The notes under the pieces were generated by a model. The model saw only the letters and a list, made by a program, of their open reading frames with translations, was not told the DNA's origin and made no database searches. The position numbers were made by a program, and so were the translations under genes. 64,000 nt of DNA from Anaerolineae bacterium (lineage in GTDB: Bacteria > Chloroflexota > Anaerolineae > Aggregatilineales > Aggregatilineaceae). Shown one piece after another: positions 7,269 to 41,091 of this stretch (its first letter is position 1; every line of letters begins with the position of its first letter). The DNA lies in NCBI GenBank assembly GCA_016926875.1, contig JAFGNU010000060.1, positions 468 to 64,467 of the forward strand, read 5' to 3'.

Positions 7269-7676
7269 ATGAATGTTTTCCGCAGGGGACGGCGATTATC
7301 GCAGGGTGATCACCCGCCCGATCGACGCGCTAATTCGGTCGACCCGGTAGGCTATAACCCGGGCCGCGACGAGTACCTGTTCTGGCTGACCGGGGACGGG
7401 TATATCGTCGCGCAGGATGTCGCCTGCCAGCACGAATATGTGCAGCAAACGCCCTGCGATCACTGCGGCGGGGAACTGGTGATTGTCGCCCACCTGAATC
7501 GAGCCGGACAGGGACTCAGCGAACTGGTGACCGTGTGTGGAGAGTGTCATCAGCGCGCCAACTTCATCTTTGACATCAGCAACAACGTGTACCAGGCCTG
7601 GTGGGCCGACCAGCTTGGCCCGCTGTACATCCAGCAGTACGACGGGGACCCGCGCGAACCGGTTCACCCGGCGTAA
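7269..7676 (+). CDS. hypothetical protein with CxxC...CxxC motif
   Basis: SD GGGGGAG before the ATG. CDHCGGEL ... CGECHQ suggests a zinc ribbon. I recognise no family. Confidence 0.45.
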   Translation: MNVFRRGRRLSQGDHPPDRRANSVDPVGYNPGRDEYLFWLTGDGYIVAQDVACQHEYVQQTPCDHCGGELVIVAHLNRAGQGLSELVTVCGECHQRANFIFDISNNVYQAWWADQLGPLYIQQYDGDPREPVHPA

Positions 7677-7699
7677 ACGCGGGTAGTGGGAAGACAATC

Positions 7700-7729
7700 A
7701 CGGGGCTGTCCCATCTGGAGCAGCCCCGT
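7700..7729. terminator. hairpin between convergent genes (possible bidirectional terminator)
   Basis: ACGGGGCTG (7700-7708) pairs perfectly with CAGCCCCGT (7721-7729). The T-run is weak. Confidence 0.35.
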
Positions 7730-7741
7730 TGTACGTATGGC

Positions 7742-8419: not shown

Positions 8420-8575
8420 CCTGTTATTCTCCTACTTGACGGATCAAACTGAGGTTGTAGCGAATTCTACCATGACCGCGCAGGTGGAGCGAGTGAGGGC
8501 AGGACAGAAGAACTCAGGGGCGCACCCGGTATGGTACGCCCCCGCGAACAAACAAAACTGCGGCGGCTGCCGGTA

Positions 8576-9754: not shown

Positions 9755-9796
9755 ACTAATTCATCCTCCTGTCAATAATGGTTACACCGGGTTGAA

Positions 9797-9818
9797 TCAG
9801 GCAGGCATGCCCGCCTGA
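9797..9818. repeat. imperfect palindrome upstream of pfp (possible operator or terminator remnant)
   Basis: TCAGGCAGGC AT GCCCGCCTGA has one mismatch. It lies 43-64 nt upstream of the pfp ATG. Confidence 0.3.
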
Positions 9819-9951
9819 AAATCGGCCAATGGCTACAAGCTGCCTTTATCCCGCGGTGATTATACCAACCCGTTGGCATCTGTGCTGTTGACATTTATCA
9901 CAAATCCGGCAGTCTGCCAGCGAGCGGCCTAACGGTAACAGGCGGCACGAG

Positions 9952-10851
9952 TCAGCCAGCAGGCTGATTGCTCTGCTCGGCCTGCCATTCCGCCAAACAG
10001 GCATCAACCCACGCCGTGACCTGCGCGGCGGCCTGGGCGGGATAGGCGTAGCCCAGCAGGTCGGCGGTTTCGGGAGCCAGCCAGCGAAACAGTGCCATTG
10101 TACCCACCAGCGCCCGCCAGAGATCACGCGCATCGTACCGGCCAAACGCGGCCCGTAATCCCGCCACCGCCCGCGCATCGGCCCACTGCTCTAAAAAGCG
10201 CCCGTTCATCCAGGTATCGTACTCGCTGCCATGCGCCACGCGGGCGTGCCAGGTGAGCACCGGCAGCACGCACCGCCACTTGAGGTAGTTATCCACGCAG
10301 CCCGACGCCGTCCACAGTTCGCCGCGCCGCAGCTTTTTTGCTGTCCAGACGGTGTGATACCAGAAGTCGTTGACCGTGTTCAAAAAGGTCGCTTCGTCCG
10401 GCAGCGGAGCCAGTACTTGTTCTGCCGGGCGTGATACCCTGTTCAGCGCGCAGTCCAGCACACCATCTTTATCAACCACCACGCGCACGCCCCGCTGCAC
10501 GATGTCCAACGCGCCGGGGTCTGACTCCAGCACCGCGAGCATCTCGACCGGGACAAACACAAAATCCACGTCCAGCATATCCTCGAACAAGACGCGGCGC
10601 TCCATTACCGTCCCGCCCATCGTTTCTTCGAGAAACGACAGCCAGTAGGGGCCAATGTGATCCAGCCAGGCGATGGTCGAAATATACGGCTGTGGATCGG
10701 TGGCGAAGATCATCAGATCGAGATCGGACCACTGATCCGCCGGGCGGTCCGTCCGCGCCCGCGAGCCGACGATCACGGCGCCCCGGATAGCCGGTTCGGT
10801 TTCGGCCCAGGATACAAAACGTTCAAGGAGCAGATCGTAAGTCAATGTCAT
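9952..10851 (-). CDS. aminoglycoside 6-adenylyltransferase (ANT(6)/AadK) family nucleotidyltransferase
   Basis: VIVGSRARTDRPADQWSDLDLMIF is the nucleotidyltransferase GS...D.D motif. FWYHTVWTAKKLRRGELW matches the AadK-family C-terminal helical domain layout. Confidence 0.7.
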   Translation of the reverse strand: MTLTYDLLLERFVSWAETEPAIRGAVIVGSRARTDRPADQWSDLDLMIFATDPQPYISTIAWLDHIGPYWLSFLEETMGGTVMERRVLFEDMLDVDFVFVPVEMLAVLESDPGALDIVQRGVRVVVDKDGVLDCALNRVSRPAEQVLAPLPDEATFLNTVNDFWYHTVWTAKKLRRGELWTASGCVDNYLKWRCVLPVLTWHARVAHGSEYDTWMNGRFLEQWADARAVAGLRAAFGRYDARDLWRALVGTMALFRWLAPETADLLGYAYPAQAAAQVTAWVDACLAEWQAEQSNQPAG

Positions 10852-11033
10852 GTCGTATCACCTGTAAAAACTCATGCCGTTATACCTGAAGGCAAACCGG
10901 CGCATCACTGCTTTCTCCGTATCTTCTCCGTATTCCTCGCAGTAATCCGAATTTGCCCGGATTTTCGCTTTCAGTATACCGGGCTTTGGGTCGCGCAGCA
11001 GGTGGCTGCGGGCTGCTGAAATTATCCAGGCCA

Positions 11034-11150
11034 TTAAGTCATTGGCCGTTTGCTGGTGGCGTCTTCCAGGCTGACAGCGCCGATATCGCGCCCGTGCAGC
11101 CCGACCATCACGCCGCTTTCACCGGCCAGCAGGCGTTGTGTGGCCGCCAC
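11034..11150 (-). pseudogene. orphan duplicate of the pfkA 3' end
   Basis: 11048-11150 matches 11933-12035 at 98/103 nt. On the minus strand it reads VAATQRLLAGESGVMVGLHGRDIGAVSLEDATSKRPMT*. It has no upstream PFK body. Confidence 0.7.
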
Positions 11151-11233
11151 AGCCGTGAGCTTAATTGCACGTTGATTTTCTTGGAGATACAATTACGATT
11201 AAGTTAAGTAATAAAATGAACAAAGGAGCATCA

Positions 11234-11803
11234 ATGCGTAAGCTAACTTGCCCCCCTGGGACAGAGACAATTGGTCAACTGCTTAATTCCTGGTATGAGA
11301 ATCTTCAGGGCGACGAGACCCGGCCCATCATGGAAAAACATGGAATGGTAAATCTCAACCCTACCACATGGTATCCCGTGCGTATGCTGTTGGACGCGAC
11401 AAATGAGATTGCCGAGAACTGCAATGTGACGCCCAACTTCGTGGCCATTGGCATGAAGATTGGCGAAGCAGTCCCTTTGCCGCCCGACATGGAGAATCCA
11501 ACCCTGGAAGAAGTATTGATGATCTGGGACGACCTGTATCAGGGGCTGCATCGCGGCGGGGATGTGGGTTGTATCAAGATTGAAAAAGTCAGTGACACCT
11601 ACTTCAAGACTATCCAGTCAGGAATATATCCCGATGACATGAGTTACGGGGTCCTCTATGCCTATGGACGTCGCTTTCTTCCACCAGGTACATCGTTCAG
11701 CGTGTTTTATGATCCCGACGTGACCCCACGTGACCAGGGCGGCGAAGGTGAAGCTACCTACATCAATATTAAGTGGTCTCCTGGCCCTCAGGATGTTACC
11801 TGA
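11234..11803 (+). CDS. hypothetical protein on a lower-GC insert
   Basis: SD AAAGGAG lies 5 nt before the ATG at 11234. GC is about 50% against about 64% in the flanks. I recognise no family (MRKLTCPPGTETIGQLLNSWYENL...). Confidence 0.6.
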   Translation: MRKLTCPPGTETIGQLLNSWYENLQGDETRPIMEKHGMVNLNPTTWYPVRMLLDATNEIAENCNVTPNFVAIGMKIGEAVPLPPDMENPTLEEVLMIWDDLYQGLHRGGDVGCIKIEKVSDTYFKTIQSGIYPDDMSYGVLYAYGRRFLPPGTSFSVFYDPDVTPRDQGGEGEATYINIKWSPGPQDVT

Positions 11804-11882
11804 GCGCCTGCCACTTTGATCAAACGGGAGACCCCCGCACATGATCCGGCTGGAATGCCCGCCCACGCGGGCCGCTGGTTGG

Positions 11883-12851
11883 TTATGACAGCAGCGATGC
11901 TATGTGGACGTATTCTTCTGCGACGGCTCGCTGTTTGCTGGTGGCGTCTTCCAGGCTGACAACGCCAATATCGCGCCCGTGCAGCCCCACCATCACGCCG
12001 CTTTCCCCGGCCAGCAGGCGCTGTGTGGCCGCCACGCCAAGCCGGGTTGCCAGCAGGCGGTCAAATGCGCTGGGGCTGCCGCCGCGCACCACGTGTCCCA
12101 ACACCGTCACGCGCACCTCAAACCCGATCTCGTGGCTTTTCAGGTAGTCGGCGATCTCGTTGGTGGTGGGCGTTGCGCCTTCGGCGATGATGCCCATGGC
12201 ATGACTCTTGCCGACCATGTAGGCATGTTCGAGCACTTTGCCGATTTCTTCGAGAGTGGTTGGATACTCCGGCACCATGACAAACTCGGCGCCGCCCAGG
12301 ATGCCGCCCACCGTCGCCAGGTAGCCGCAGTTGCGCCCCATGACTTCCAGCAGGAAACAGCGCTCATGGCTGCTGGCCGTATCGCGCAGCTTGTCGACGG
12401 CGTCCAGAATGGTGTTCAGCGCGGTGTCCACGCCGATGCTGGTGTTGGTGCCCCAGATATCGTTGTCGATGCTGCCGGGCACACCGATCACCGGGAAGCC
12501 CATTTTGTGCAGCGACAGCGCGCCGCGCAGGCTGCCGTCTCCACCGATGACCACCATGCCCTCGATACCGTGTTCGTTCAGACGGCGCAGGCCGCGCTTC
12601 TGGCCCTGGGGGGTTTTGAATTCCAGATTGCGGGCGGTTTGCAGGACGGTGCCGCCGCGCTGGATGATGCCGCTGACGTCGCGGCTGGTCATGCGTTCCA
12701 GGTCACCGGACAGCAGGCCGGAGTAAGCCTGCCGGATGCCGTAGACTTCGACATTTTGAGCCGTTGCGGTGCGCACAACAGCGCGGATAGCCGCGTTCAT
12801 GCCTGGGGCGTCGCCCCCGCTTGTCATGACTGCAATACGTTGCATGGTCAT
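11883..12851 (-). CDS. pfkA: ATP-dependent 6-phosphofructokinase
   Basis: IAVMTSGGDAPGMNAAIRAVV, plus GGDGSLRGA (Gly104 type), VPGSIDNDI (Gly124 type) and EVMGRNCGYLA. Confidence 0.92.
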   Translation of the reverse strand: MTMQRIAVMTSGGDAPGMNAAIRAVVRTATAQNVEVYGIRQAYSGLLSGDLERMTSRDVSGIIQRGGTVLQTARNLEFKTPQGQKRGLRRLNEHGIEGMVVIGGDGSLRGALSLHKMGFPVIGVPGSIDNDIWGTNTSIGVDTALNTILDAVDKLRDTASSHERCFLLEVMGRNCGYLATVGGILGGAEFVMVPEYPTTLEEIGKVLEHAYMVGKSHAMGIIAEGATPTTNEIADYLKSHEIGFEVRVTVLGHVVRGGSPSAFDRLLATRLGVAATQRLLAGESGVMVGLHGRDIGVVSLEDATSKQRAVAEEYVHIASLLS

Positions 12852-12877
12852 TGGTTATGCTCCTCTGTCTGAGCGCG

Positions 12878-13114
12878 TTACGTTCGAATTGTATCAGAGA
12901 AAAGGGTGTCTCCGCCGCCGGATATATGTCGCGGCACTGCGGGCCAGTTCTGTATCGCCGGAATCAGTAAACTATCAGCGGTGTTATACATCGCTGCGCC
13001 CTGGCTGTCAACCGGGGAACGGTAAAGCTTGTTTAACGCTTGAGCATAGGTGATGGCAGGGACCGGCCATCCCAAAAACAGCAGCGCACATGCAAGGGCA
13101 GCAGCCCGCTGCAT
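12878..13114 (-). CDS. possible small secreted protein
   Basis: Signal-like N-terminus MQRAAALACALLFLGWPVPAITYAQA. Lies between the TPR gene and pfkA on the same strand. No homology recognised. Confidence 0.3.
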   Translation of the reverse strand: MQRAAALACALLFLGWPVPAITYAQALNKLYRSPVDSQGAAMYNTADSLLIPAIQNWPAVPRHISGGGDTLFSDTIRT

Positions 13115-13188
13115 GTACGCTGTGACTGGATTGCGTCTGCGTGTTGTGTAGGCGCCGGACGGCGTGTCAACCCATCGCCCGCGCCGCG

Positions 13189-14355
13189 CTATTTTTCTTT
13201 GACGGTGACCGATTTGACGATGCTGTCGATGTCACCTTCAAACAGGCTGTATTGGTTTTCCGGCGTGGTAATGGTCCAATAGCTGCCCCTGTCGCGGTCG
13301 ATGGGCACGACGAGCATGATCATGTGCATTTCGTCGGGCGCGTCCACGTCCTCGAAAATACGTTCGCCGCCGCTGCTTTCGACCGAATCCACGCGGAAAG
13401 CGCACAGGTTGTCGTCCAGTTCGATCCGCTCGACGTCTGCGTCAGGGTCCATTTCTTTGAACTGGCTTTCGAGCGCTTCCATATCATCACATTCAAAGCT
13501 GGGTACAGAATATTCCTCGGCGGCCATTATGCCCCCAAAAAGCAGGCCGCTTGGCGCCCCGCCGCTCATGAGTGTGACCGGGCTGACGTCCAAAATGGCA
13601 ATCCCGCCTTCCTCACCGGTCACCTCGTCGAGATTCACTTCCATGTCGGTCCAGCCGTCTTCCTGGTTTTCAAAGGGCAAGTACTGGTTGAGCGAATCGC
13701 GCCAGGCTTCCCACCAGGCATCCCCTTCAACCGCCGCGTACCAGGTGCGCGGCACGTCCACGGATACGGTGTAATCGTCAAGATCGATTTCAACCGTTTT
13801 GCGCCCAAACTCACCCGGCAGATAAACGGCCAGCAGGTCGCCCGGTCCCAGGCTTTTGCTGGTATAGCTCACGCCGCCGCAGACCAGCGCGGGCAGTACG
13901 ATCAGCACCAGGAACAGCAGCAAACAGGCCTGCGTACACCCGCAGCCCAGGCAGCCGCGTTTTTTGGCGGGCTGTACATACAATACGCTGCTGGGTGCGG
14001 GCTGTTGGGGTTGGGGCTGCCCGCTGTAGGCCATGGGCGGGGCCTGGTACGCCGGGGCAGGCGGCGGCGTATACTGCTGGGGCGGGGCATACTGTTGAGG
14101 CGGCGGCGCTGTTGCTCCGACCTGTTGTTGGAACTGGTTTAGTAGCTGGCGTGCCTGCTGGTTACCCGGATTGATGCGCAGCACTTCGTTCAGGGCGCGC
14201 TGGTATTCGGCCTGATCGGCAGCGACCGACGCCAGCCAAAGCCACGCCATTTCATTGTTGGGATCGCTTTGGGCCACCTGGCGGAGCAGTTGGCGAGCTT
14301 CCTCTCTGCGACCCGCTTGTGCGAGTTGCACGGCTTCATGCAATTGAGAGGACAT
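13189..14355 (-). CDS. TPR-repeat membrane-anchored protein with P/Q-rich linker
   Basis: SD AGGAG. TPR-like N-terminus (AQAGRREEARQLLRQVAQSDPNNEMAWLWLA), a PPPQQYAPPQQY linker, one TM helix (LLLFLVLIVLPALVCGG) and an acidic C-terminal domain. Confidence 0.7.
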   Translation of the reverse strand: MSSQLHEAVQLAQAGRREEARQLLRQVAQSDPNNEMAWLWLASVAADQAEYQRALNEVLRINPGNQQARQLLNQFQQQVGATAPPPQQYAPPQQYTPPPAPAYQAPPMAYSGQPQPQQPAPSSVLYVQPAKKRGCLGCGCTQACLLLFLVLIVLPALVCGGVSYTSKSLGPGDLLAVYLPGEFGRKTVEIDLDDYTVSVDVPRTWYAAVEGDAWWEAWRDSLNQYLPFENQEDGWTDMEVNLDEVTGEEGGIAILDVSPVTLMSGGAPSGLLFGGIMAAEEYSVPSFECDDMEALESQFKEMDPDADVERIELDDNLCAFRVDSVESSGGERIFEDVDAPDEMHMIMLVVPIDRDRGSYWTITTPENQYSLFEGDIDSIVKSVTVKEK

Positions 14356-14465
14356 GGAAGGTATCTCCTGACTGAATGAATAAGCGATTCAAAGAGACAT
14401 GATGCAACATGATACCACACTATCTCACGACAGCATTATGCTTCAGATTGGCCGTTTTGGACAAG

Positions 14466-15281
14466 TCACTTGGAGCCATACACACGCCGCAGCAGCCGGT
14501 CTGCCAGCGCCGGGAAACCCCGCCCGATCAACACGAACAGCCTGTCGATCCAGCGCAGCGTCATGGTACGCGGTTTGCGTTCCAGTGCCCGCGCGATGCC
14601 CCCGGCGACCTGTTCGGCGCTCATAGTCGGCCAGCGTGACGCCACGCGGCCCGGCGTGCCCAGGCGTTTTTCGGCAAACTCGGTGTGTGTCTGCCCGACG
14701 TGCAGCACCGAGACGTAAATATGATCGGCGCGCAGCTCTTCGCGCAGCGAGCGCCCCAACGCATCGACCGCCGCTTTGCTGGCGCTGTACACGCCCGCAT
14801 ACGGCGCCGGGACTGGTCCCAAAATCGACGAGATCAGCACGATATGCCCGCCGCCGCCCGCGCGCATGGCCGGGATCGCCGCGCGCACGCTGTGGATCAC
14901 GCCGTCGATGTTGGTCCGCAGCACGGTTTCGATGCCTGACCAGTCCGATTCGACCAGCGCCCCGCGATGCCCCCGTCCCGCGTTGGCGACCAGCACGTCC
15001 AGCCGGTCGAACTCGTCCAGCGTCAGCGCTGCCGCGCGCTTCATGGCTGCCGCGTCGGTCACGTCGGCCTGCACCGTGAAGATGGTGCCGGACAGGTTTT
15101 TGTCTTCGGCTTCCTGCTTGAGCGCGTCCAGCCGGTCGGCCCGGCGACCGGTGGCCGTGACATTGTGCCCCATCGCCGCGAACAGCAGCGCCGCCGCCCG
15201 GCCAATGCCGGAGGTCGCGCCCGTGATCAGCAGGGTGCGCTTGGGTTCGTCGGGGATGAAGAGCTTGCGGTAGGTGTCCAT
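14466..15281 (-). CDS. SDR-family oxidoreductase
   Basis: TGATSGIGRAAA is the TGxxxGxG motif; NAG and YSASKAAV (YxxxK) are also present. Confidence 0.85.
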   Translation of the reverse strand: MDTYRKLFIPDEPKRTLLITGATSGIGRAAALLFAAMGHNVTATGRRADRLDALKQEAEDKNLSGTIFTVQADVTDAAAMKRAAALTLDEFDRLDVLVANAGRGHRGALVESDWSGIETVLRTNIDGVIHSVRAAIPAMRAGGGGHIVLISSILGPVPAPYAGVYSASKAAVDALGRSLREELRADHIYVSVLHVGQTHTEFAEKRLGTPGRVASRWPTMSAEQVAGGIARALERKPRTMTLRWIDRLFVLIGRGFPALADRLLRRVYGSK

Positions 15282-15299
15282 AACAGGGTTTCCTTTCGC

Positions 15300-16532
15300 T
15301 TACCGGATCGGGCGCGCAACCACGCCCCACACATCATCGAGCACGTCGAGCACCTCGCCCGTCTCGATGTCCACGCGCCACAGGTGGGTGGGCGGCATGT
15401 AGGCAGCCAGCGCGGGATCGGTGCTCAGGGCGTCGGCGGCAACCTGGCCGGAGTTCAGCGCGTTAACCAGCGCAAAGTTCGGCTCGACGACTGCCGCGAA
15501 CACGTAGCGATCCGTCGCGGCCAGCGAACTGACGCCGTAGACATCCGGGCGCCAGGCCAGCTCGCGGACCTGTTCGGTTACCAGGTTGAGCCGGTACAGC
15601 ACAATGTTGGCACTGCGCGTATCGACCGGGAACGGCGGCTCGATGTCCAACGCCAGCGGCGCGCCGGGATTGAAACGCGCCAGGATATACAGCGCCGTAT
15701 CGTCCGGCGACCACGTGATCCGCTCGACGTCGCCCAGGCCGCCCGCCACTTCGAGCGTATAATCGCGCGTGCCCGCCGTGATCAGGTCGATCACGCGGAT
15801 CGTGCCGCCGGTTGTCGGCCCGGCGAGATGCGTCCGCGTGGAACTGGCCGCCGCCGCGCCCGGCAGAAACGTCCCATCAAAAACCGAGTACTCGCCCAGG
15901 CCGACGTGCAGCATCCCCAGGCCGGGATTTGGAAAGCAGCACGTACCAAACAGGTTGACGCCGTAGGTCGGCCACAGGTTCGGGCGCCCGGTGTTGAGCA
16001 GTCCGCCGTCCCGCGCGTACAGCGCCGCCGCGAACGTCAGGTCGGCGCGCGTGGCGCCCGCCTGGAAGCGCCCAAAGTAGCCCGCCAGCCGCCCGCGCCC
16101 GCCCTGCATCTGGTCGGTGGGGATGGCGTACACCGGGAAGCTCACGATCCCCTCTTCGACGGGCTGCGGGTCCGCCGATTCCAGGTAATACAGCGCGCTG
16201 CGGTCCTGCGCGACAGCCAGGGTGCGCCCGTAGCTGCCCGGCACCTGGGCTGCTGCCGCGCCGCCCGGCCCGGTCGCGTACAGGCCATCGTCCCGCGCGA
16301 TGTACAGCGTGCGCCCGTCCGCCGTCCAGAACAGGCGCGCGCCCTGCCCATAGCTGAACGCCGGGCCGGTGGTCGTGACCGGTGATCCGTCGGCCCCGGC
16401 CAGCGTGACGGTGTCGGCGTGCACATACGCCAGCCGCACGTCGCCGGAATCCTGCGCGCAGCCGGTGGCCGGTGGCAGCGCGGTTATCAGCAGGGCGGCC
16501 AGCAGCGCCAGCCGTGTGATCCGTGGGTGCAT
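15300..16532 (-). CDS. lipoprotein, probable beta-propeller
   Basis: Lipobox LPPATGC after a signal peptide, and SD GGAGGGAG. Repeated Gly/Asp/Tyr-rich strands suggest a TolB-like propeller; this call is weak. Confidence 0.6.
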   Translation of the reverse strand: MHPRITRLALLAALLITALPPATGCAQDSGDVRLAYVHADTVTLAGADGSPVTTTGPAFSYGQGARLFWTADGRTLYIARDDGLYATGPGGAAAAQVPGSYGRTLAVAQDRSALYYLESADPQPVEEGIVSFPVYAIPTDQMQGGRGRLAGYFGRFQAGATRADLTFAAALYARDGGLLNTGRPNLWPTYGVNLFGTCCFPNPGLGMLHVGLGEYSVFDGTFLPGAAAASSTRTHLAGPTTGGTIRVIDLITAGTRDYTLEVAGGLGDVERITWSPDDTALYILARFNPGAPLALDIEPPFPVDTRSANIVLYRLNLVTEQVRELAWRPDVYGVSSLAATDRYVFAAVVEPNFALVNALNSGQVAADALSTDPALAAYMPPTHLWRVDIETGEVLDVLDDVWGVVARPIR

Positions 16533-16620
16533 GTGTCTCCCTCCTGCGTGGGTGATCGCCTAGAGTGTACCGCGTGGCAGCGCGCCGGGACAATGTTGGG
16601 GAATAATCCCAGGCGCGCGA

Positions 16621-16643
16621 TGGTGTCGTGATCATGTAGGGGC
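16621..16643. repeat. REP-like element fragment (GTAGGGGC family)
   Basis: TGGTGTCGTGATCATGTAGGGGC is identical to 53892-53914. Confidence 0.7.
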
Positions 16644-16745
16644 CAACTACTGGTCCAGATTTGCACGCAAGCCGTGCCGCGCGTGTTGCCGCTGCTGCCC
16701 GGCACACTGTACAATGAACCCGGTATTGATACACAAGGGGGTAGT

Positions 16746-17963
16746 ATGCCGGTGCAGCAGGTATTCATCAGCTACAAACGCGACGACTCTGACGATTTTG
16801 TGCGCTGGCTGGCGGCGGGACTGCGCGCGGCGGGCGTGCACACCTGGGTAGACGTCGAAGACATCGATCCCGGCGAGAACTGGGACGTGGCCGTCGAACG
16901 CGGGCTGGACGCCTGCGACGCGATGATCGCGGTCCTGACGCCGGGCGCGGTCAAGTCCAGGAATGTACGGGACGAGTGGTCGTTTTTCCTCGACGAGGAC
17001 AAACCAGTTTACCCGGTCATGCTCCAGAAATGCCGCGTACCGTACCGCCTGCGGCGCGTGCAGCACATCGACTTCAGCCGCGACCCGGACGGCGCGCTGG
17101 CGGACCTGCTCGATGCGTTGGGGGCAGCCGCACACCACCCGCCGACTGAACCCGACCGCCTGCCGTTCGAACCGGAGACGGTGTTGGTCCCGGCGGGACC
17201 GTGTGTGATCGGCAGCACGGCGGCGCATGTCGCAGCGCTGAAGGACCAACACCACAACTGGGATTGGCCGGAGAAAACGGAGCAGCCGCAGCACACCGTC
17301 ACGCTGCCGGACTACCGCATCGGCAGATACCCGGTGACGGTGGGCGAATACCGGGCCTTTGTCGAGGCGGGCGGCTACCGGGAGCGGCGCTGGTGGACTG
17401 ACGCAGGCTGGCGCGTGCGCGGTGAGGAAAACTGGACCGCGCCGCATTACTGGGATGATAAGAAGTGGACCGGCGATGACCGGCTGCCGGTGATTGGCGT
17501 AAGCTGGTATGAAGCGGTCGCGTACTGCCGCTGGCTGGCGGCGCAGACGGGCCAACCCTACCGCCTGCCAACCGAGATCGAATGGGAAAAGGCGGCCAGG
17601 GGGCCGGATGGGCGGCGGTATCCCTGGGGCGATGCGTGGCGAAACGAGGTATGTACCACCCAGGAAGCGGGGATTGGGCACACAACGCCGGTCGGGCGGT
17701 ACAGCCCGGCGGGTGACAGCCCGTATGGCGCGGCGGACATGGCGGGTAGTGTGTGGGAGTGGTGTACAACCGGGTGGCGGGATACCTACGAGGAGGCGGC
17801 GGACGATGATCTGGACGGCGATGCCCGGCGGGTGGTGCGCGGCGGGTCGTGGGGTGACAACCAGGGCGACGCGCGCGCCATGTCTCGCTACGGGCTTCAG
17901 GCTGCGTCCCGGCTCAGCTTTAACGGCTTTCGGGTGGTATATACCCCGCCTGATTCCGCGTGA
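16746..17963 (+). CDS. TIR domain / FGE-sulfatase (SUMF1, C-type-lectin fold) fusion protein
   Basis: SD AAGGGGG before the ATG at 16746. TIR segment: VFISYKRDDSDDFVRWL...DAMIAVLTPGAVKSRNVRDEW. FGE segment: RIGRYPVTVGEYRAFV, SWYEAVAYCRWL, YRLPTEIEWEKAARG, MAGSVWEWC, RGGSW, GFRVV. Confidence 0.85.
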   Translation: MPVQQVFISYKRDDSDDFVRWLAAGLRAAGVHTWVDVEDIDPGENWDVAVERGLDACDAMIAVLTPGAVKSRNVRDEWSFFLDEDKPVYPVMLQKCRVPYRLRRVQHIDFSRDPDGALADLLDALGAAAHHPPTEPDRLPFEPETVLVPAGPCVIGSTAAHVAALKDQHHNWDWPEKTEQPQHTVTLPDYRIGRYPVTVGEYRAFVEAGGYRERRWWTDAGWRVRGEENWTAPHYWDDKKWTGDDRLPVIGVSWYEAVAYCRWLAAQTGQPYRLPTEIEWEKAARGPDGRRYPWGDAWRNEVCTTQEAGIGHTTPVGRYSPAGDSPYGAADMAGSVWEWCTTGWRDTYEEAADDDLDGDARRVVRGGSWGDNQGDARAMSRYGLQAASRLSFNGFRVVYTPPDSA

Positions 17964-17978
17964 GCGTGTATGTGGAAA

Positions 17979-18081
17979 GCCCTCACCCTTCCGACTACGT
18001 CGGGTCCCTCTCCCTCAGGGCGAGGGATTAGCTTAGCTCTTACTCCCCTCTCCATGAGGGAGAAGGGCGGGGGATGAGGGC
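17979..18081. repeat. nested-palindrome REP/MITE-like element (CCCTCTCC/GAGAGGG family)
   Basis: Outer arms GCCCTCA (17979-17985) and TGAGGGC (18075-18081). Inner hairpins CCTCTCCCTCAGGGCGAGGG and CCCCTCTCCATGAGGGAGAAGGGCGGGG. Confidence 0.7.
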
Positions 18082-30676: not shown

Positions 30677-32431
30677 ATGAGTGATGACGACATCCGGCGC
30701 GACGATACCGGCGAAGCCGCCAACAGCGCCCCAAAAGATAAGTTTATGGAAACACTCAAGGATCTGCCTCGCTTGAGATCCATCGAAAACGTCGAGAACG
30801 GCAAATCGTATGCGCCGCCCCCGCCGGGAGTGGCCCGCATGGCCGGGGCGACGCAGGGGTGCGGCGGCGTGCTTGTGACATTGATCAGCGTCCCGATGCT
30901 GATGGTGGCGCTGGGGTTTGGGTATTACATGTGGGGGCCGATCCTGCTGCTGCTGGGCGGGCTGCTGCTGGTAGCGGCAGGTGTCGGACTCTGGCGCGGC
31001 GGGCGTATCTCGGTGCTGGTCGGGCTGGTGATGAGCCTCACGTTTTTTGCCGTCTCTTATACCTGGCGCTACTTTGTCATCTCCGTTGCGATCCTATCTC
31101 CGTTGGGCATCATATCGGACATGATCTACGGCCTGGGGCTGGCCATCGGCTTGATCAGCCTGGTTACCGGCTTGATCTTTCTGGTTCTGACACTGCTTCG
31201 CTGGCGGCGGCTCAAAAAACCGACAACGCCCGTGGCGGTTGCCTGGGGGATCGCGGCTGTTTTGACCATCATCGCCCCGATTGTGGTGCAGTCAACCGAG
31301 CAGGACCAGCGTAAAACCTGGCTGGATGACCGGTTGGAAGGCTGGAGCGCGGACGCCGCCACCGATACATTGGTCATGGGGGGGAACGTCGGCGTATCGT
31401 TGGGTTACAGTTTTGATGTTACGGACCCGGATCACGAATTCGATGTTCGCGTGGCCGAGCTTGAGGCGGCGCTTGAAGCCGGGGCGTTTCCGATCCGGCT
31501 GGCAGCTAACGGTGACATCCTGCTACAGCAGCAGGAAGAATTGAGAAAAGCCGCCGAAGACGACGCCTCGATCACCGAGTTGAGTGACATCGAGCTGTCA
31601 GAAGGGCTGCAAAAACAGATTGGCTACGAGACGCGCTATATGGATCGCGTGTTCGAAGCGGGCGTGCCGTTGTTCCTGTCGGACTCGCAGTATTCGCCGC
31701 ACCTGTTGGAATTGACCGATAACGGCAAAGACCTGCATCCCTGGGAAGCGTTCACCGTGCTGCACCTGGATCGGGTGCGGAGCTATGCCGAACAGTACCA
31801 GCCTGCCTATTACGCAGTGGTGGCCGAGCCGGGTGCCTATTACCAGTACAGCGGCATCGAGCGGCCCGCCGATGAAGATGATGACGAAGCCAACGCTGAA
31901 GCCTGGATCGAGCATACCGGAGACCTGATCGACGTGGTGAAAGAGGTCAGCCCGGATACGCGCATCGCAGTGACCATCTCGATCAATGACGATCTCGATA
32001 TCATTTATTACCGGGCCATGCTGGAAATGGACGGCATTGACCTGATCACGGTTGATGTGTACCAGTTTGGGTCGTTTTCGCAGTTGCAGGACCTGATCGA
32101 TTCTGAAGGGCACCCGCGCGACTACGACAAGGAATTGTGGATCAGCGAAACGTGGTACGGTTTCTGCATGGCGCCGCAGCGCAGCATGGCGCTTGACGCC
32201 CAGTGGTTGGAAGTCGTGGTTGCGTTCGCGGCCAAAGAAGGCATTACCGGCGTGATGCCCAACAGTTTTGGCTGCTTCCTGTCGCCGGGCGGGACGCTGT
32301 TTATCCCTGAGCCAGACCTGAGCGGGCGCACCGAGGCATGGGAAACCTGGCGGGAGTTGGTGGAAACGTGGCAGGGACCTGGCCCCGATGAAGTGGACGC
32401 CGGGCCGGTCGAAGCCGGTGACGAGAGCTAA
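30677..32431 (+). CDS. membrane protein with large acidic C-terminal domain, function unknown
   Basis: SD AAGGAG. Five or six hydrophobic helices in residues 60-200, then about 380 aa of soluble domain. I recognise no family. Confidence 0.6.
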   Translation: MSDDDIRRDDTGEAANSAPKDKFMETLKDLPRLRSIENVENGKSYAPPPPGVARMAGATQGCGGVLVTLISVPMLMVALGFGYYMWGPILLLLGGLLLVAAGVGLWRGGRISVLVGLVMSLTFFAVSYTWRYFVISVAILSPLGIISDMIYGLGLAIGLISLVTGLIFLVLTLLRWRRLKKPTTPVAVAWGIAAVLTIIAPIVVQSTEQDQRKTWLDDRLEGWSADAATDTLVMGGNVGVSLGYSFDVTDPDHEFDVRVAELEAALEAGAFPIRLAANGDILLQQQEELRKAAEDDASITELSDIELSEGLQKQIGYETRYMDRVFEAGVPLFLSDSQYSPHLLELTDNGKDLHPWEAFTVLHLDRVRSYAEQYQPAYYAVVAEPGAYYQYSGIERPADEDDDEANAEAWIEHTGDLIDVVKEVSPDTRIAVTISINDDLDIIYYRAMLEMDGIDLITVDVYQFGSFSQLQDLIDSEGHPRDYDKELWISETWYGFCMAPQRSMALDAQWLEVVVAFAAKEGITGVMPNSFGCFLSPGGTLFIPEPDLSGRTEAWETWRELVETWQGPGPDEVDAGPVEAGDES

Positions 32432-32449
32432 CCAGAGCGAGGGACTTGT

Positions 32450-32860
32450 ATGATCACACGCATCAATCACATCGCCATCGTGGTCGAAGACCTGGACGCC
32501 GCGCTGGGCTTCTGGCGGGATGCGCTGGGCCTGCCGCTGGACAAAACCGAGGAGAACCCCGGCGAAAACGTGACTATCGCGTTTTTGCCGATTGGTGAAG
32601 CCGAGATCGAACTGCTCGAACCGACCGACCCGGCGAGCGGCATCGGGAAATACCTGGCCAAAAAAGGCGCGGGTATGCACCATGTCTGCGTGGAAGTGAC
32701 CGGCATCGACGCGGTGATCGAGCGGCTGGTGGCGCACGGGGTCGAGATGATCAACGAAACGCCGCGCGTCCGTGACGAGGGCACGCGCTATGCGTTTGTG
32801 CATCCCAAGAGCGCGTTTGGCGTGCTGGTCGAACTGTACGAATTACCGGAGGGGCCATAG
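32450..32860 (+). CDS. mce: methylmalonyl-CoA epimerase (VOC/glyoxalase fold)
   Basis: INHIAIVVEDLDAALGFW..., IELLEP, GAGMHHVCVEV and AFVHPKSAFGVLVEL. Confidence 0.87.
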   Translation: MITRINHIAIVVEDLDAALGFWRDALGLPLDKTEENPGENVTIAFLPIGEAEIELLEPTDPASGIGKYLAKKGAGMHHVCVEVTGIDAVIERLVAHGVEMINETPRVRDEGTRYAFVHPKSAFGVLVELYELPEGP

Positions 32861-36088: not shown

Positions 36089-37183
36089 CTACACAAACAG
36101 CCTGAGTTTGTCAAAATCGGCGCGCAGCGTGTCTTTCTGGCTGGCGCTGTATAACACCACGGCGGGATGGTACATCGGCAGGACGTGGATTTCGCCGTAG
36201 GGCATCTGCGCCTTGATCAGCTTGCCGTGCAGCGCGCTGATCTTGCCGCCCTTTTCGGGCAGGTCCAGCTTCTTGAGGATGTAGTGCGCGGCGAACCGGC
36301 CCAGCGGCACGATCACCGACGGCTGGATGATGTCGATCAGCCGGTCCACGAACGGCGTGTAGTAGGCGATCTCGTCGGCGGTTGGATCGCGTTTGCCGGG
36401 CGGGCGGTCCAGCAGGATATTGGTGGTGAACACGTCCTCACGGCCCAGGCCGATGTCGGTCAGCATCTCGTCGAATACGTCGCCGGACGGGCCGTTGAAC
36501 GGAATGCCCGATTCAGCTTCGTATTTGCCCGGCGCTTCACCGATAAACAGGATGCTCGCGTCGGCGTAGCCATCGCCCAACACGGGGAAGGCGCGCATCT
36601 TGGTGCGGTAGGCGTACAGCGGCGAGTCGGTTGCATCGACCAGTTCCAGGCGCAGCGCTTTGATCGCTTCTTCTTTGCGGCGCAGCGCGGCAGCATCGGC
36701 GGGCGCTTTGCCGGACCTGCTCGTGCGCACGGCGCTTTTGATCACATCCACCAGCTTGTGCATATCGTAGCCAAAGCGGTGATGGCTCAGTTCAATCGCG
36801 TTGCGCCGGGCCAGCGACGCGAGATCGTCCGGCAGATCGACGGGAGCGGGCATCGGCGCGCGCCCGACCAGCACCGGGATCACGAGCTGGCCGCCCTTCA
36901 GCGCGCTGGCGATCTCGATGCGTACAAAGTCGTTCGGCTGGTCCAACCGGCGGCGGCCTGCCTCGTCGGTGATGGTCAACCAGGACGGGCCGATCACCGC
37001 GATGAACACGTCACACGCGGCGACGGCGTCTTCGAGTGTCTGGACAAAGTCCGCGCCCGGCTCGATGTTATCCACATCCATGAAGACGTCGGCGTGATCG
37101 AAGTGCTGGACCAGGTGATCGTACAGCCGCCCGACGTACCCTTCGCTGTCCTGCCTGCGGTAGCTGATGAATATCCGGCTCAT
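36089..37183 (-). CDS. TIR domain fused to family-4-like uracil-DNA glycosylase domain (no Fe-S cysteines)
   Basis: TIR segment: MSRIFISYRRQDSEGYVGRLYDHL, DVFMDVDNIEPGADF, CDVFIAVIGPSW, DFVRIEIASAL. UDG segment: ILFIGEAPG, GIPFNGPSGDVF, VFTTNILLDRPP, VLPMYHPAVVLY. Confidence 0.85.
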   Translation of the reverse strand: MSRIFISYRRQDSEGYVGRLYDHLVQHFDHADVFMDVDNIEPGADFVQTLEDAVAACDVFIAVIGPSWLTITDEAGRRRLDQPNDFVRIEIASALKGGQLVIPVLVGRAPMPAPVDLPDDLASLARRNAIELSHHRFGYDMHKLVDVIKSAVRTSRSGKAPADAAALRRKEEAIKALRLELVDATDSPLYAYRTKMRAFPVLGDGYADASILFIGEAPGKYEAESGIPFNGPSGDVFDEMLTDIGLGREDVFTTNILLDRPPGKRDPTADEIAYYTPFVDRLIDIIQPSVIVPLGRFAAHYILKKLDLPEKGGKISALHGKLIKAQMPYGEIHVLPMYHPAVVLYSASQKDTLRADFDKLRLFV

Positions 37184-37329
37184 GGGTTGGCGCTCCTGAA
37201 CGGGTGTCTGGCACGCGCGTCATTATAGCAGGACTTGCGCCGGGGCGGGAAACGGCGGCTCGGAACCCTTGGCGGCTACGTCTTGTGGGGCGGAAAACCA
37301 GAATATCGGCAAGCTATGGAAACCTTGAA

Positions 37330-37524
37330 GCCGTTGCTCATATCCTCGAAAAGCTTAATTCTCAACCTGCGCCGCCTGACCCAACCCTGACCACTCGTGA
37401 ACGAAATATCATTCTCCGCGCTCGATACGCTGCCTGGCTATCGCAAGCTGACCTCGACGCCAGTTTGGGATTTCGTATCAACGGGTGCATCAGATTGTGC
37501 ATGGAAAACGGAATTAGACTATAA
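37330..37524 (+). pseudogene. possible relic of a sigma-70 region-4-like HTH gene
   Basis: In-frame translation LTTRERNIILRARYAAWLSQADLDASLGFRINGCIRLCMENGIRL* resembles region-4/LuxR-type HTH. There is no credible start codon, and the upstream part of the ORF looks like non-coding read-through. Confidence 0.25.
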
Positions 37525-37586
37525 ACTAACATCGACAACAGTAGTTAGGGTAGCTGCATGTTGTCTAGCAAATCCCGTGATTTAGA

Positions 37587-37623
37587 GCCAAAGGAAATCC
37601 TAAGCTGTAGGATTTCCTTTGGC
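37587..37623. terminator. perfect 15-bp hairpin straddling the stop codon of the HD-GHKL gene
   Basis: GCCAAAGGAAATCCT (37587-37601), a 7-nt loop, AGGATTTCCTTTGGC (37609-37623). No clear U-run on the minus strand. Confidence 0.45.
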
Positions 37624-40600
37624 CCAGTGTTCAAAATCTTCAGAAGTGACCTTAGTTATTTCCCCGTTAGCAAGACGAATGGTGTATGGTGGATGAAGCC
37701 TTGTATCGACCCTTGACCAGTCTACATCTTTGTATCGATTACCCAAACGTAATTGTCCATAAGTAAGTTCGGAATCATCAAACGATTCTTGAGTGCTAAG
37801 CGTCCATATAGCGCTCAGTGCAAAGTTTTGAAGGTCTGAGGGGGCTTCACGATAACGAGCATCCTGGGCCTGTTTAACAAGAGGGTGACTCCGGTTAACT
37901 GAACGAACAGGCATATGAACAGAAAAGAACTCTTGAGCTTCGCTCGAATATGGCAAAAGAATCAAGTGGCTGGTTATTCCGTTAAAAACAAATTCCCAAG
38001 GGGAGGTATTGGGTTGGGTAGGAGACTGTATTTCAAGTATTGCCGAGTTATTCTTTATAGTAACTGTAGACATTGTTGCTACAATGATTTTTATACTCCA
38101 TTCCAAACCGTGTTTCTCACTCCTTTTGGGCAACCATTTTGTGAGGGTTTCGTAAGCACCGACATTTCCCTCGTTTCCATATAATATTTGATATGATTCC
38201 TTATCTGAGCTTTTCAGTTCAATTGCGTTCAAGGAATGGATGGGAATCCATTTACGTAATTTATCTTCAAAGACGATTGGTACGGCGATTTTCGACCAGA
38301 TTGCATTTGCCCGCATCAGGAAAACCGATGTTTCACCATTACGAGAACCATAAATAACTGCCAATTGCCAAAAGGTTTCGTCGTCCAGTCTCTCCCCTAA
38401 TTGAGAAGCGATTTGTTCCCATAATCTGCCTTGCCCTCTCTCTGCAAGCATCTGAATATAATCCCAGCGTGGCCCGAAGCTGAATGCCCCTCTGCTTCGG
38501 GGAGGAAAACGCGCTGGTGTTAAAGGCGGTTTGATTTGCCCCCGTATGTCTAAAAGCGCAGACATAGGGTAAAGGTCAATAGGACTAGCTCGCCAGCCTA
38601 ACGACACCTCTTTAGCTTCTCGTCCTGGCATTCCGGCTACCAAAATGCCATCAATACATGTTTGAGTATCGAGATGGCGACGATTATCCTTAAATATCTT
38701 TCCATCGGAACTAACTAAGAGAGTTTCGTCATTGTTGTCTAGTTCGTTTTTTGGTTTCCAACTTGCCTCATCGTTATCTAGAACCAAATGCCCAGCATTA
38801 TTGATGAGGAAACTAGCTCTGATACAACCGCCTAAGAGCGGGTCAATCTCTGAAAAGTCTTGCTCAATCGTTTTACAAGTTGTGATATTGGAAATTTCCA
38901 TTAGCGTCCGAGGAGTGGCAATCTTGGGAGGTATTTTTATGGTCTCGGCTAATTCTTCTATGGTGCAATTCGCGCGTATGGGAAATTCACAAGCAAGAGC
39001 ATAGCCCCGGACCATCGAGACTAGCTTTACTTGATCGCTATATTTATCCAGAAAGCTTGGTTTTTTGCGCCCGGTGATTTCAACAGAAGTGCCAACAGGT
39101 TGGCTGTCTTCTCCTTCGCGAATAACCACGATACTACCAAGCCCATTGATTTCGATAATCAATGGAGGACCGTATCCTCGTGATGGGCCATAGTCGCGAC
39201 GAGTGTAGATAATTATATGGTCACCGAGCATAAAGCACGACATGAAACCGATGCCGAATTGTGAACACGGGTCGAAATCAACTCCAGCAGCCCTAAAACT
39301 AATCCGTTCTTGCTCAAATTCTGGGGAACGATAATAACTCCGACCAACACGAGTTAGGAAACGTTCTATTATAGCCTCGTCCATACCCGCCCCGTTGTCA
39401 GTGCATCGGATTAATTCATGGCCTTGCTCGTCCAGTTCATGTTGCATGGAAATTTCGCCACCATGCCAATTATCATTGATGTTACGTTTTATTAGCGCTT
39501 GGCGGTACCGGAGCGCGTCTAAAGAGTTTTGAAGTAATTCACGGATACAAAGCGAGGGTGAACCGTATAGTTCATCAGTCATTAGAAGTTTAACAATATC
39601 ATCACGCGACAAAGAGAACTCTAGGTCATGGTATATATAGGCATTATCTTTTGGTTCAATTCGAGACCTATCGACTTTTAAGGGAAGGTCTAGTTGATAG
39701 TATTCTACATGGGCAGGAAAGCTACGATGAATATCACGCGCGTTTGCCAATTCCTGGTCAATCCAATCGATAAACCTGTAAGCCGCTCTTTGATATTCAG
39801 GGTGTTCACATCGCATCGTAAATTGGATTTGTCCACTATTTATAATCCAGCTTTCAACAGAGCGATGCTTTGCCCATTCGATTAAACTAATATTGCTGCG
39901 AAAATCAATAGTGCGATAGAGTTCGTCAGGTGTGCGTTCTCGGTCAAAATCCAAAATATCGGCAAGGCGCAAAATCAACCCTAAATACACCATATTGACT
40001 TTGTAATGTCCGATAACCTCATCGTATCGAAAACCATTTGATGGGGTCAAGTCGTACGTTGATTTAACATGTGATAAGCACAGTCTCGCCACAAATTTAG
40101 CAAGGTTAGTGCCACCAACTTCCCATCGTCTATCACTGCCGAATGTTTTACGTACAAATTCGGCTGAGCGTTGACCATGCGTTTCACGTATGTAGTCAGT
40201 CAACAGTGCACCCTTGAGTTCATACTTTAATTCTCTATAACGTTCTTGCTCATCGTCGCGCAAACTCTCATCATTCAAATGCTGTCGCACTTGTTTTAGA
40301 TTAGGGTGTTCGATTTCCCAGTTATCTTGAAATTTCTTAAATTCACTGGTTGTTTTTAAAATGTCAATTTCATCTTTTTCCAATACCATGCCTTGGTCAT
40401 GATAATGGGCAGCCAGAATAAGTAGTGTTATTTCTACTGGATTCAATTTATCAAAGACTGATGTAGGCATAATCTTTGACATTAATTCAGTGACACGAAT
40501 GAGATGAACCTCGTCGTGCAATGTATATTCAGGATGAAGAGACGGAAACCCTTTCATTCGGTTATATGCTTGGTTACATATACCAATTAGGTTTGGGGCA

Positions 40601-40698
40601 AGTGTGCCTGCAACTTGCCCATCGGCGCCAGAAAAGCCTCTGTTGAGACGTTGCCACAATGACGTATCTTCTAATTTTGCAATCCGAGTAGCAGACAT
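37600..40698 (-). CDS. large HD-domain / GHKL (Hsp90-MutL-MORC-like) ATPase protein
   Basis: HD pattern: LHDEVH ... LILAAHYHDQGM ... LRLADILDFD. GHKL motifs: IRELLQNSLDA, CTDNGAGMD, SQFGIGFMSCF. I prefer the ATG at 40698; the ORF is open to a TTG at 40728. Confidence 0.85.
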   Translation of the reverse strand: MSATRIAKLEDTSLWQRLNRGFSGADGQVAGTLAPNLIGICNQAYNRMKGFPSLHPEYTLHDEVHLIRVTELMSKIMPTSVFDKLNPVEITLLILAAHYHDQGMVLEKDEIDILKTTSEFKKFQDNWEIEHPNLKQVRQHLNDESLRDDEQERYRELKYELKGALLTDYIRETHGQRSAEFVRKTFGSDRRWEVGGTNLAKFVARLCLSHVKSTYDLTPSNGFRYDEVIGHYKVNMVYLGLILRLADILDFDRERTPDELYRTIDFRSNISLIEWAKHRSVESWIINSGQIQFTMRCEHPEYQRAAYRFIDWIDQELANARDIHRSFPAHVEYYQLDLPLKVDRSRIEPKDNAYIYHDLEFSLSRDDIVKLLMTDELYGSPSLCIRELLQNSLDALRYRQALIKRNINDNWHGGEISMQHELDEQGHELIRCTDNGAGMDEAIIERFLTRVGRSYYRSPEFEQERISFRAAGVDFDPCSQFGIGFMSCFMLGDHIIIYTRRDYGPSRGYGPPLIIEINGLGSIVVIREGEDSQPVGTSVEITGRKKPSFLDKYSDQVKLVSMVRGYALACEFPIRANCTIEELAETIKIPPKIATPRTLMEISNITTCKTIEQDFSEIDPLLGGCIRASFLINNAGHLVLDNDEASWKPKNELDNNDETLLVSSDGKIFKDNRRHLDTQTCIDGILVAGMPGREAKEVSLGWRASPIDLYPMSALLDIRGQIKPPLTPARFPPRSRGAFSFGPRWDYIQMLAERGQGRLWEQIASQLGERLDDETFWQLAVIYGSRNGETSVFLMRANAIWSKIAVPIVFEDKLRKWIPIHSLNAIELKSSDKESYQILYGNEGNVGAYETLTKWLPKRSEKHGLEWSIKIIVATMSTVTIKNNSAILEIQSPTQPNTSPWEFVFNGITSHLILLPYSSEAQEFFSVHMPVRSVNRSHPLVKQAQDARYREAPSDLQNFALSAIWTLSTQESFDDSELTYGQLRLGNRYKDVDWSRVDTRLHPPYTIRLANGEITKVTSEDFEHWAKGNPTA

Positions 40699-41091
40699 TG
40701 AGCTATTGACCTTCCATGTTTGCGACAAATACTTCTTGAATGTTAGGAGGGAAATACAGTCGATTTACGTGACAAGATCTTAGAACTGTTTGGATGGAGA
40801 AAGCTATAGACGGCATTATATTACAATTGAATTTATAAAGTCACAATGTAATGTATCTCATGTAGGTATGTAAAAACAAGTTGCCCTTCGCTGCAAGCCA
40901 GCGGCACCGCCCCTAGCGCATTAGTGGTGCAACGCAGGCGCGGGAGTAGCCTGGGTAGGGCACCCCGGCGCAAGACCGGGGAGGGGTTCCGGGAGGGGAT
41001 TGCACCCCCCCGCCAGGGGTTAGGGTATGATAGGCGTGCAGCGAATCGCCAACAACCCGGCAGATGACGGGATCAGGCGCAAGGAGCGAAA

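Follow-up and report, generated by a model that had tools for sequence, protein, structure and literature searches.

Within the 64,000-nt stretch of contig JAFGNU010000060.1 of an Anaerolineae bacterium (assembly GCA_016926875.1; this whole stretch is referred to as the window), we analyzed a low-GC islet (37250..40890) that carries a single gene, whose product joins an N-terminal HD-superfamily domain to an Hsp90-type ATPase and a long C-terminal region. An earlier reading of the letters alone (the sequence-only reading) had described a marked drop in GC content at this place, and both windowed GC and codon composition bear it out. In 500-nt windows the GC content falls from 0.58-0.66 to 0.39-0.48 between positions 37250 and 40999 (0.62 elsewhere), and when the entire 64 kb was scanned, all 1-kb windows with a GC content below 0.50 started at 37251-40251. 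Outside the islet the 1-kb values had a mean of 0.623 (standard deviation 0.035; minimum 0.528). The right border is abrupt (0.34 to 0.72 inside approx. 100 nt, near 40880), and on the left the GC content changes in steps between 37250 and 37500, with values of 0.51-0.55 at 37250-37450, followed by 0.40-0.44. The GC content at the third codon positions (GC3) of the islet gene is 0.375, versus 0.795±0.054 in 25 other long open reading frames (ORFs) of the window (z = −7.9).

The gene corresponds to one minus-strand ORF (37600..40728), which comprises 1042 aa when it is extended mechanically to a TTG codon at 40728; residue numbers given below follow this 1042-aa frame. The true start is likely the ATG at 40698 (M11), because a GGAAGG sequence is located 11 nt upstream, the N-termini of homologues coincide with this position and the gene model in the database has 1032 aa. 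The coding sequence is accordingly placed at 37600..40698 (minus strand, including the stop codon), preceded by the Shine-Dalgarno-like GGAAGG at 40710..40715 (minus strand), as read from the sequence. The database entry in question, a 1032-aa "ATP-binding protein [Anaerolineae bacterium]", is 100% identical to the islet protein, and the gene was also located on a contig of sequencing run SRR13394437. The single ORF of 1032-1042 aa reported in the sequence-only reading was thus recovered, and all of the HD and GHKL peptide strings quoted there were found in its translation.

The HD-superfamily pattern proposed for the N-terminal part was assigned to a defined family. Residues 66-328 (39745..40533, minus strand) match Pfam family PF24391 (HD-CE, CE being short for "conflict effector") with an E value of 1.1e-55; the score of 189.6 bits far exceeds the cutoff of 27, and the match extends over profile positions 2-262 of 263. 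All 27 homologues tested (27/27) match this family as well. When 15 full-length homologues (43-58% identity) were aligned, and again in the wider set of 27 sequences, no variation was seen at the putative metal ligands H71-D72, H75, H110-D111 and D257, nor at D260 and D262; judged by these columns, the active site of the HD-CE domain is intact. The HD part also gave weaker secondary Pfam matches, to the generic HD family in 20 of the 27 homologues and to PDEase_I (cyclic-nucleotide phosphodiesterases) in 16, and weak similarity to Ppx-GppA_III was seen; matches to Cas3-type HD domains were absent from these secondary matches in all 27. Because the secondary matches are to generic HD and PDEase_I profiles and not to Cas3-type HD nucleases, they slightly favor a small-molecule substrate. 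A profile of the HD-containing N-terminal part had no match at E≤10 among all PDB sequences. The only PADLOC-DB 2.0 protein model matched by the islet protein was that of the defense reverse transcriptase RT_UG24, the C-terminal region of which aligns with the HD-CE domain (E 1.4e-11); by this alignment the two have a domain, and not a system, in common.

The central part of the protein (aa 375-600; 38929..39606, minus strand) is an Hsp90-type Bergerat (GHKL) ATP-binding domain, as revealed by NCBIfam, PDB sequence and Foldseek comparisons and by invariant alignment columns. All four Bergerat motifs (E397/N401, D444-x-G446-x-G448, G492-x-G494 and G546-T547) are invariant in the 15 homologues and again in the 27, and they align with those of Hsp90 and Grp94. 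Two NCBIfam profiles, HSP90 family protein (PRK14083; E 7.6e-23, 80.8 bits against a cutoff of 455) and HtpG (E 2.2e-14, 52.9 bits against a cutoff of 371), align with the N-domain alone, and their equivalog cutoffs for membership of the whole protein in the Hsp90 family were not reached. The MutL profile TIGR00585 gave E 0.19. All 60 listed PDB sequence matches are Hsp90-family N-domains (Hsp90, Grp94, HtpG and TRAP1), and all 50 matches listed by Foldseek for the full-length AlphaFold model (mean confidence, pLDDT, 82; predicted template-modeling score, pTM, 0.70) belong to the same family, with E values down to 3e-13. The sequence-only reading had placed the domain in an Hsp90/MutL/MORC style; the Bergerat motifs and the Hsp90 type stand, and the MutL/MORC-type identity was dropped in view of the TIGR00585 value and the uniformly Hsp90 nature of the listed sequence and fold matches. 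The ATPase is specifically Hsp90-like, and its ATP-binding and hydrolysis motifs are, at the level of conserved residues, intact. The invariance of both the HD and the GHKL motif residues suggests that both enzymatic domains are active.

The remaining part of the protein (aa 601-1042; 37603..38928, minus strand) is a family-specific, fast-evolving region of approx. 440 aa for which a confident fold model was obtained: when modeled alone with AlphaFold2 (AF2) it gave a pLDDT of 87 and a pTM of 0.89. The statement that the last approx. 450 aa resemble nothing recognizable holds at the level of both profile and fold. There was no significant Pfam match, no match of the C-terminal profile to any PDB sequence at E≤10, and no significant similarity of the model to PDB folds (the top match was TRAP1, with E 2.0 and a probability of 0.09 over 173 columns) or to BFVD entries (best E 0.23). 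Alignment of the profile by hhalign with two other Hsp90-like proteins, L041 and L043 (the latter matching the HSP90 middle domain in Pfam), likewise gave nothing. The full-length model aligned with TRAP1 N-M fragments with a target-based template-modeling score (TMt) of 0.50-0.53. An assignment of the tail to the Hsp90 middle and C domains, based on Foldseek alignments of 480-755 columns, was rejected, because the best E value of the tail-alone model was 2.0. There is a weak hint from the models that the first approx. 170 tail residues may remotely resemble the Hsp90 middle domain.

Searching 1.84 billion representative proteins with the C-terminal profile yielded 226 matches, 143 of them at E≤1e-30. 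In the full-length matches the tail always occupied residues approx. 585-1030 of proteins of approx. 1,000-1,080 aa, which is the architecture of the islet protein. The mean pairwise identity of the tail is 0.31 (12% gaps), compared with 0.55 for the HD-CE domain and 0.61 for the ATPase (≤2% gaps), i.e. the tail has diverged about twice as much as the remaining protein. Two tail motifs are nevertheless invariant: DGILVxG and D727-x-R729-G730-x-x-K733-P734...R740, the latter forming a loop of invariant alignment columns (38509..38550, minus strand). Because of its analogy to the arginine of the Hsp90 middle domain and the transducer lysine of GyrB/MutL, this loop may be a candidate "catalytic loop" that senses the γ-phosphate of ATP. 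Five of the top 40 BFVD entries retrieved with the C-terminal model were phage RIIA or RIIA-like proteins, all of them non-significant (E 0.4-2.4, root-mean-square deviation ≥18 Å). Phage RIIA begins with a GHKL-type ATPase, and a remote relationship between the regions that follow the ATPase in RIIA and in the islet protein is a lead worth recording.

Relatives with a different domain composition were also identified. At three loci (L041, 8918-11575; L042, 8924-11572; L044, 8942-11611) proteins of approx. 885 aa carry an N-terminal calcineurin-like phosphoesterase (Metallophos) followed by an Hsp90-like ATPase; these fusions, which come from three genomes of Bacteroidetes, including two of Pedobacter, have the design of the islet protein with another effector. 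Phage- and plasmid-borne relatives align to residues approx. 55-540 alone, that is, to the HD-CE domain and the ATPase. Among them are the plasmid "ATP-binding proteins" H7-H14 (e.g. NZ_CP104333.1, 45056-46260, and NZ_CP036079.1, 446487-447806), with 21-35% identity over this part. The alignments of these partial relatives suggest that sister families keep the effector-ATPase core and have different C-terminal regions. Since the calcineurin-like fusions differ in the effector, and the plasmid and phage relatives are limited to the HD-CE domain and the ATPase, both the effector and the tail appear to be exchangeable around the Hsp90-like ATPase.

A word-indexed protein search revealed 1,412 proteins similar to the islet protein at E≤1e-3. 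The top 120 of these are nearly all of approx. 1,020-1,050 aa and 42-58% identical to it, and the named sources among them include Clostridium, Peribacillus, Paenibacillus, Sedimentibacter, Hymenobacter, Acidobacteria, Victivallales and Armatimonadetes. With one genome taken per species, 39 loci were found across many bacterial phyla as well as in Methanosarcinales and Promethearchaeota; none of these 39 genome hits was in Chloroflexi. The GC content of the homologues was lower than that of their flanks at 34 of 37 loci (median difference −0.074), and the islet locus is the extreme of this set (approx. −0.18). An all-against-all comparison of the ORFs within 8 kb of 40 loci revealed no conserved neighbor beyond three to four closely related Lachnospiraceae genomes, and the gene is therefore a stand-alone one, as had been supposed. 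The deviant GC3, the low GC content of the homologues and the patchy taxonomy without Chloroflexi all agree with the horizontal acquisition put forward in the sequence-only reading, and the synteny of the homologues is not kept. The islet is best explained as a single-gene cassette gained by horizontal transfer, which has taken place repeatedly in this family.

Neither the 50,697 phage records nor the 72,556 plasmid records searched contained a full-length copy. At four loci (L005, L028, L031 and L038) the homologue is broken into two ORFs; these may be pseudogenes or assembly errors, and should the splits be genuine, they would fit a gene that is costly and easily lost. A divergent HD-CE/ATPase copy (L040, 6895-9563) stops after approx. 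500 aa, and an ISAzo13-family DDE transposase comes immediately after it; an insertion sequence may have interrupted this copy. For the islet itself, an unambiguous empty site was not obtained: relatives of its flanking CYTH (53-72% aa identity) and TIR-UDG (72% aa identity) genes lack the HD-Hsp90 gene at that place, but their distance from the islet genome is too great and gene order is lost precisely at the junction.

The surroundings of the homologues were screened with PADLOC by taking the closest two ORFs to the left and to the right of each gene (127 ORFs in total), a scan whose output consists of families and not of counts of positive neighbors; many defense families were matched. When 20 neighbors were resolved singly, six strong defense positives were obtained at five loci. 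These neighbors are a Lamassu-like ATPase of the mad3/LmuB kind (L002), HmaB and HmaC, which flank the HD-Hsp90 gene on opposite sides in a Verrucomicrobia metagenome-assembled genome (L016), a Type IIG restriction-modification enzyme (L026), a DpdE/ZorD-like helicase (L022) and PDC-S06 (L035; E 1.8e-302). The Verrucomicrobia locus (6729-18055) is a dense defense island, in which the HmaB methylase and the HD-Hsp90 gene are followed downstream by a SIR2-like ORF and then by HmaC. Integrases and an IS110 transposase are encoded close to one homologue. In Clostridium botulinum (L061, 1-13084) the homologue ends a prophage-like block (ImmA-like peptidase, helix-turn-helix repressors, DnaB_2, amidase endolysin and PIN_8), a location typical of prophage-carried defense cargo. 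The conflict or defense context expected for the gene is thus recurrent, not universal, with defense neighbors at at least five non-redundant loci in addition to the mobile contexts.

The islet borders and flanks of the Anaerolineae locus were analyzed in the same way. As had been noted from the letters, they show no integrase, transposase, tRNA or clean direct repeat: no integrase or transposase domain was present in the neighboring ORFs scanned, and neither a tRNA nor an Rfam family was detected in the islet region. A flanking 14-nt direct repeat (86% identity; 37539 and 41014) was rejected as a target-site duplication, since approx. 0.1 such repeats are expected by chance in the border windows, and a 15-nt inverted repeat (93% identity; 37231 and 40963) is also at chance level. 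The islet gene is separated from the TIR-UDG gene by a 416-nt spacer (37184..37599) that has an intermediate GC content and no recognizable gene (an ORF of 106 aa at 37204-37524 is without a Pfam match); this spacer may be a decayed remnant brought in with the islet. Upstream of the gene, the putative TTGTGA-17-TAATAT promoter of the sequence-only reading is present (40846-40818, minus strand) and overlaps a second sigma-70-like candidate, GTGACT-18-TATAAT (40815..40846, minus strand), which scores 10/12 against the consensus; both are consensus matches only, and such sites are no commoner in the region than in shuffled sequence (9 found, versus 6.9±2.8). At the other end of the gene, an inverted repeat with perfect 16-bp arms separated by a loop of 5 nt (37587..37623, minus strand), found by a repeat search, overlaps the stop codon. 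It is possibly a transcript-end hairpin, which is not followed by a T tract, and a terminator scan of the region gave no enrichment over shuffles.

To the right, the islet is flanked in the window by genes for a CYTH protein, flavodoxin, methylmalonyl-CoA mutase and carboxyl transferase. To the left lies the TIR-UDG gene (36089-37183, minus strand), which is native to the lineage; its 364-aa product is a TIR domain fused to a family-4 uracil-DNA glycosylase, and its GC content is that of the genome. The 120 listed protein clusters similar to TIR-UDG are of near-equal length and 66-74% identical, and the named ones are from Anaerolineae or Chloroflexi, for which reason the fusion appears to be widespread in the lineage and inherited vertically, and not to be a mobile defense gene. 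One possibility is that its TIR domain regulates or reports uracil excision. Farther away (30677-32803), the window contains two long ORFs that overlap each other on opposite strands (plus, 584 aa; minus, 401 aa), without Pfam matches.

We propose that the islet protein is a one-protein conflict system, most likely directed against phages, in which a chaperone-derived switch and sensor gates a nucleotide-degrading HD effector; we put the probability of this reading at roughly 0.55. The switch and sensor would be made up of the Hsp90-like ATPase together with the C-terminal region, and its ATP-bound N-domains would dimerize by analogy with other GHKL proteins. At rest, the HD-CE effector would be kept inactive. 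An infection cue, either a phage protein acting as a "client" or another infection-specific ligand, would be recognized by the variable C-terminal region, and this recognition would drive or release an ATP-dependent conformational cycle leading to activation of HD-CE. The active effector would then hydrolyze free nucleotides (dNTPs, NTPs or related compounds), so that phage replication would be starved and the infected cell arrested or killed. The proposal is supported by the conserved HD and ATP sites, the curation of the HD domain as a conflict effector, the variability of the tail, the exchange of effector and tail among relatives, and the mobility and genomic context of the gene; the calcineurin-like fusions and the RT_UG24 alignment lend it independent support.

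Several points weigh against this proposal. The sensor role of the tail and the ATP-driven dimerization are inferred, as is the nucleotide substrate, and HD domains are also nucleases in some cases. Relaxed constraint, and not an arms race, could account for the tail having diverged so fast. With regard to context, ten further mid-sized neighbors gave no strong defense match, many copies are surrounded by housekeeping genes and not by defense islands (purely so in the islet copy and in two others), and a PADLOC check, which had been suggested for the gene, showed that the islet protein matches no named PADLOC 2.0 system. No experiments on the HD-CE/Hsp90-like family were found in the literature searched, and for this reason the defense role stays inferred. 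The protein is not new in kind, as its HD domain already bears the name of a Pfam family of "conflict effectors", PF24391. We take this family to be that of Nicastro et al. 2023. Their study is said to be a computational one that names HD-CE and PRTase-CE, describes systems in which HSP90- and HSP70-related modules take the part of STAND NTPases and are coupled to effectors of this sort, and reportedly defines HD-CE as a nucleotide-targeting effector family; Hsp90-coupled effector systems had thereby reportedly already been predicted.

A more specific and tentative version of the proposal, which we would sooner doubt than assert, is that the Hsp90-like ATPase and the unmatched tail constitute a chaperone-derived pattern-recognition receptor, which captures a phage "client" or senses a phage-induced collapse of proteostasis and transmits the signal through the Hsp90 ATP clamp cycle to nucleotide depletion. 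If this were true, the protein would represent a class of prokaryotic immune sensors that do the work of STAND/NLR NTPases but have a chaperone as their chassis, with a C-terminal fold absent from the PDB.

Among explanations that depart from the proposed nucleotide-degrading system, the one that survives best, unlikely as we hold it to be, is an ATP-dependent nuclease, in which the GHKL part would clamp nucleic acid (as in MutL, MORC, Topo VI-B and VcSduA) and the HD domain would cut invading DNA or RNA in the manner of the Cas3 HD domain. The mobility and context of the gene fit this explanation equally well, nucleases are generally known to occur among HD domains, and a single-protein defense system combining a GHKL ATPase with a nuclease exists, namely VcSduA (PMC12137116). 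However, the ATPase is of the Hsp90 type and not of the MutL, MORC or GyrB type (E 0.19 for MutL, with Hsp90s making up the listed PDB and Foldseek matches), neither an S5-fold transducer nor a DNA-binding domain was detected in the tail by PDB sequence and fold searches, and the weak secondary Pfam matches of the HD part are to nucleotide phosphodiesterases, not to Cas3-type HD domains. The reported definition of HD-CE as a nucleotide-targeting family also speaks against a nuclease.

It is still less probable that the gene serves mobile elements, and not host immunity, as a weapon or an addiction module, e.g. as an exclusion factor of prophages or islands, or a toxin-like stabilizer that harms cells which lose the element or compete with it. 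Copies at the end of a prophage and beside integrases and IS110, the copy interrupted beside a DDE transposase, the patchy distribution with consistently low GC content and the partial relatives on plasmids speak for such a module, but the 40 loci contain no antitoxin-like or immunity partner gene, full-length copies are missing from the phage and plasmid records, and most copies, including that of the islet, are chromosomal singletons without mobile-element genes nearby. A non-conflict accessory enzyme, such as a stress-linked chaperone paralogue joined to a phosphohydrolase for a signaling nucleotide (cyclic nucleotide or (p)ppGpp), is very improbable, since the weak PDEase_I and Ppx-GppA_III similarities, the Hsp90-like fold and the several copies amid housekeeping genes that point to it are set against an extreme foreign composition, a patchy cross-domain distribution, non-conserved synteny, frequent defense genes as neighbors, the existence of split and truncated copies and the curation of the HD family as a conflict effector.

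If the proposed mechanism of chaperone-gated nucleotide degradation is right, the gene would provide immunity on its own, with a chaperone-type ATPase in the place of STAND, AAA+ or helicase switches, and its nucleotide-depletion output would parallel that of animal SAMHD1. The system would also be a tractable model for Hsp90-like machines rewired from protein folding to danger sensing, and would add a structurally unrepresented sensor domain. With respect to annotation, the labels "ATP-binding protein" and "HD domain-containing protein" hide one mobile conflict family in many phyla.

The closest affinities of the islet protein are to the HD-CE family, to which it belongs with a score far above the cutoff (189.6 bits against 27), and to the Hsp90/Hsp70-coupled effector systems reportedly predicted in 2023. 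The islet protein agrees with the latter in joining the effector to an Hsp90-like ATPase in one polypeptide, with the calcineurin-like fusions as a parallel, and in its sporadic distribution and its association, at some of the loci, with defense or mobile contexts. With the Hsp90 chaperones (HtpG, TRAP1 and Grp94), its best sequence and fold matches, it has in common a Bergerat N-domain with all of the catalytic motifs; it differs from them in that the part following the N-domain has no significant match to the middle and C domains and in the addition of an N-terminal HD enzyme. The chaperone genes are core genes, whereas the HD-Hsp90 gene is mobile and patchily distributed. HD-superfamily phosphohydrolases that starve viral replication are represented by SAMHD1 and by bacterial dGTPase-type defense, and HD-CE would, by analogy, resemble them in a dNTP-depleting HD activity. 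These enzymes are regulated by allosteric nucleotides, while control by the fused ATPase is proposed for the islet protein, the HD part of which matched no HD enzyme of the PDB at E≤10.

Further systems described in the literature are comparable in part. VcSduA is a Shedu-type single protein in which a GHKL ATPase at the N-terminus is combined with a PD-(D/E)xK nuclease at the C-terminus, and both motif sets are required (PMC12137116). It resembles the islet protein in combining a GHKL ATPase and a degradative effector in one polypeptide, but its effector is a C-terminal DUF4263 nuclease, whereas that of the islet protein is an N-terminal HD-CE domain and the ATPase is of the Hsp90 type; the islet protein has no Pfam match to DUF4263, the nuclease domain of Shedu type I-D, and matches no PADLOC Shedu model. 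Calcineurin-CE is a sister "conflict effector" family, attributed in PMC12871103 to Nicastro, Burroughs, Iyer & Aravind 2023 (Nucleic Acids Res 51:11479; doi 10.1093/nar/gkad879), and one of its systems, PUA-Calcineurin-CE-HAD, has been validated by experiment: its activation depletes dNTPs and aborts infection (PMC12871103). Like the islet protein, it employs a phosphoesterase of the "conflict effector" type, but this has a calcineurin-like fold, is associated with a PUA sensor that binds m6-dAMP, is encoded by two genes and forms filaments. Finally, a DnaK-like chaperone occurs fused to defense protease-effector modules (PMC12642450).

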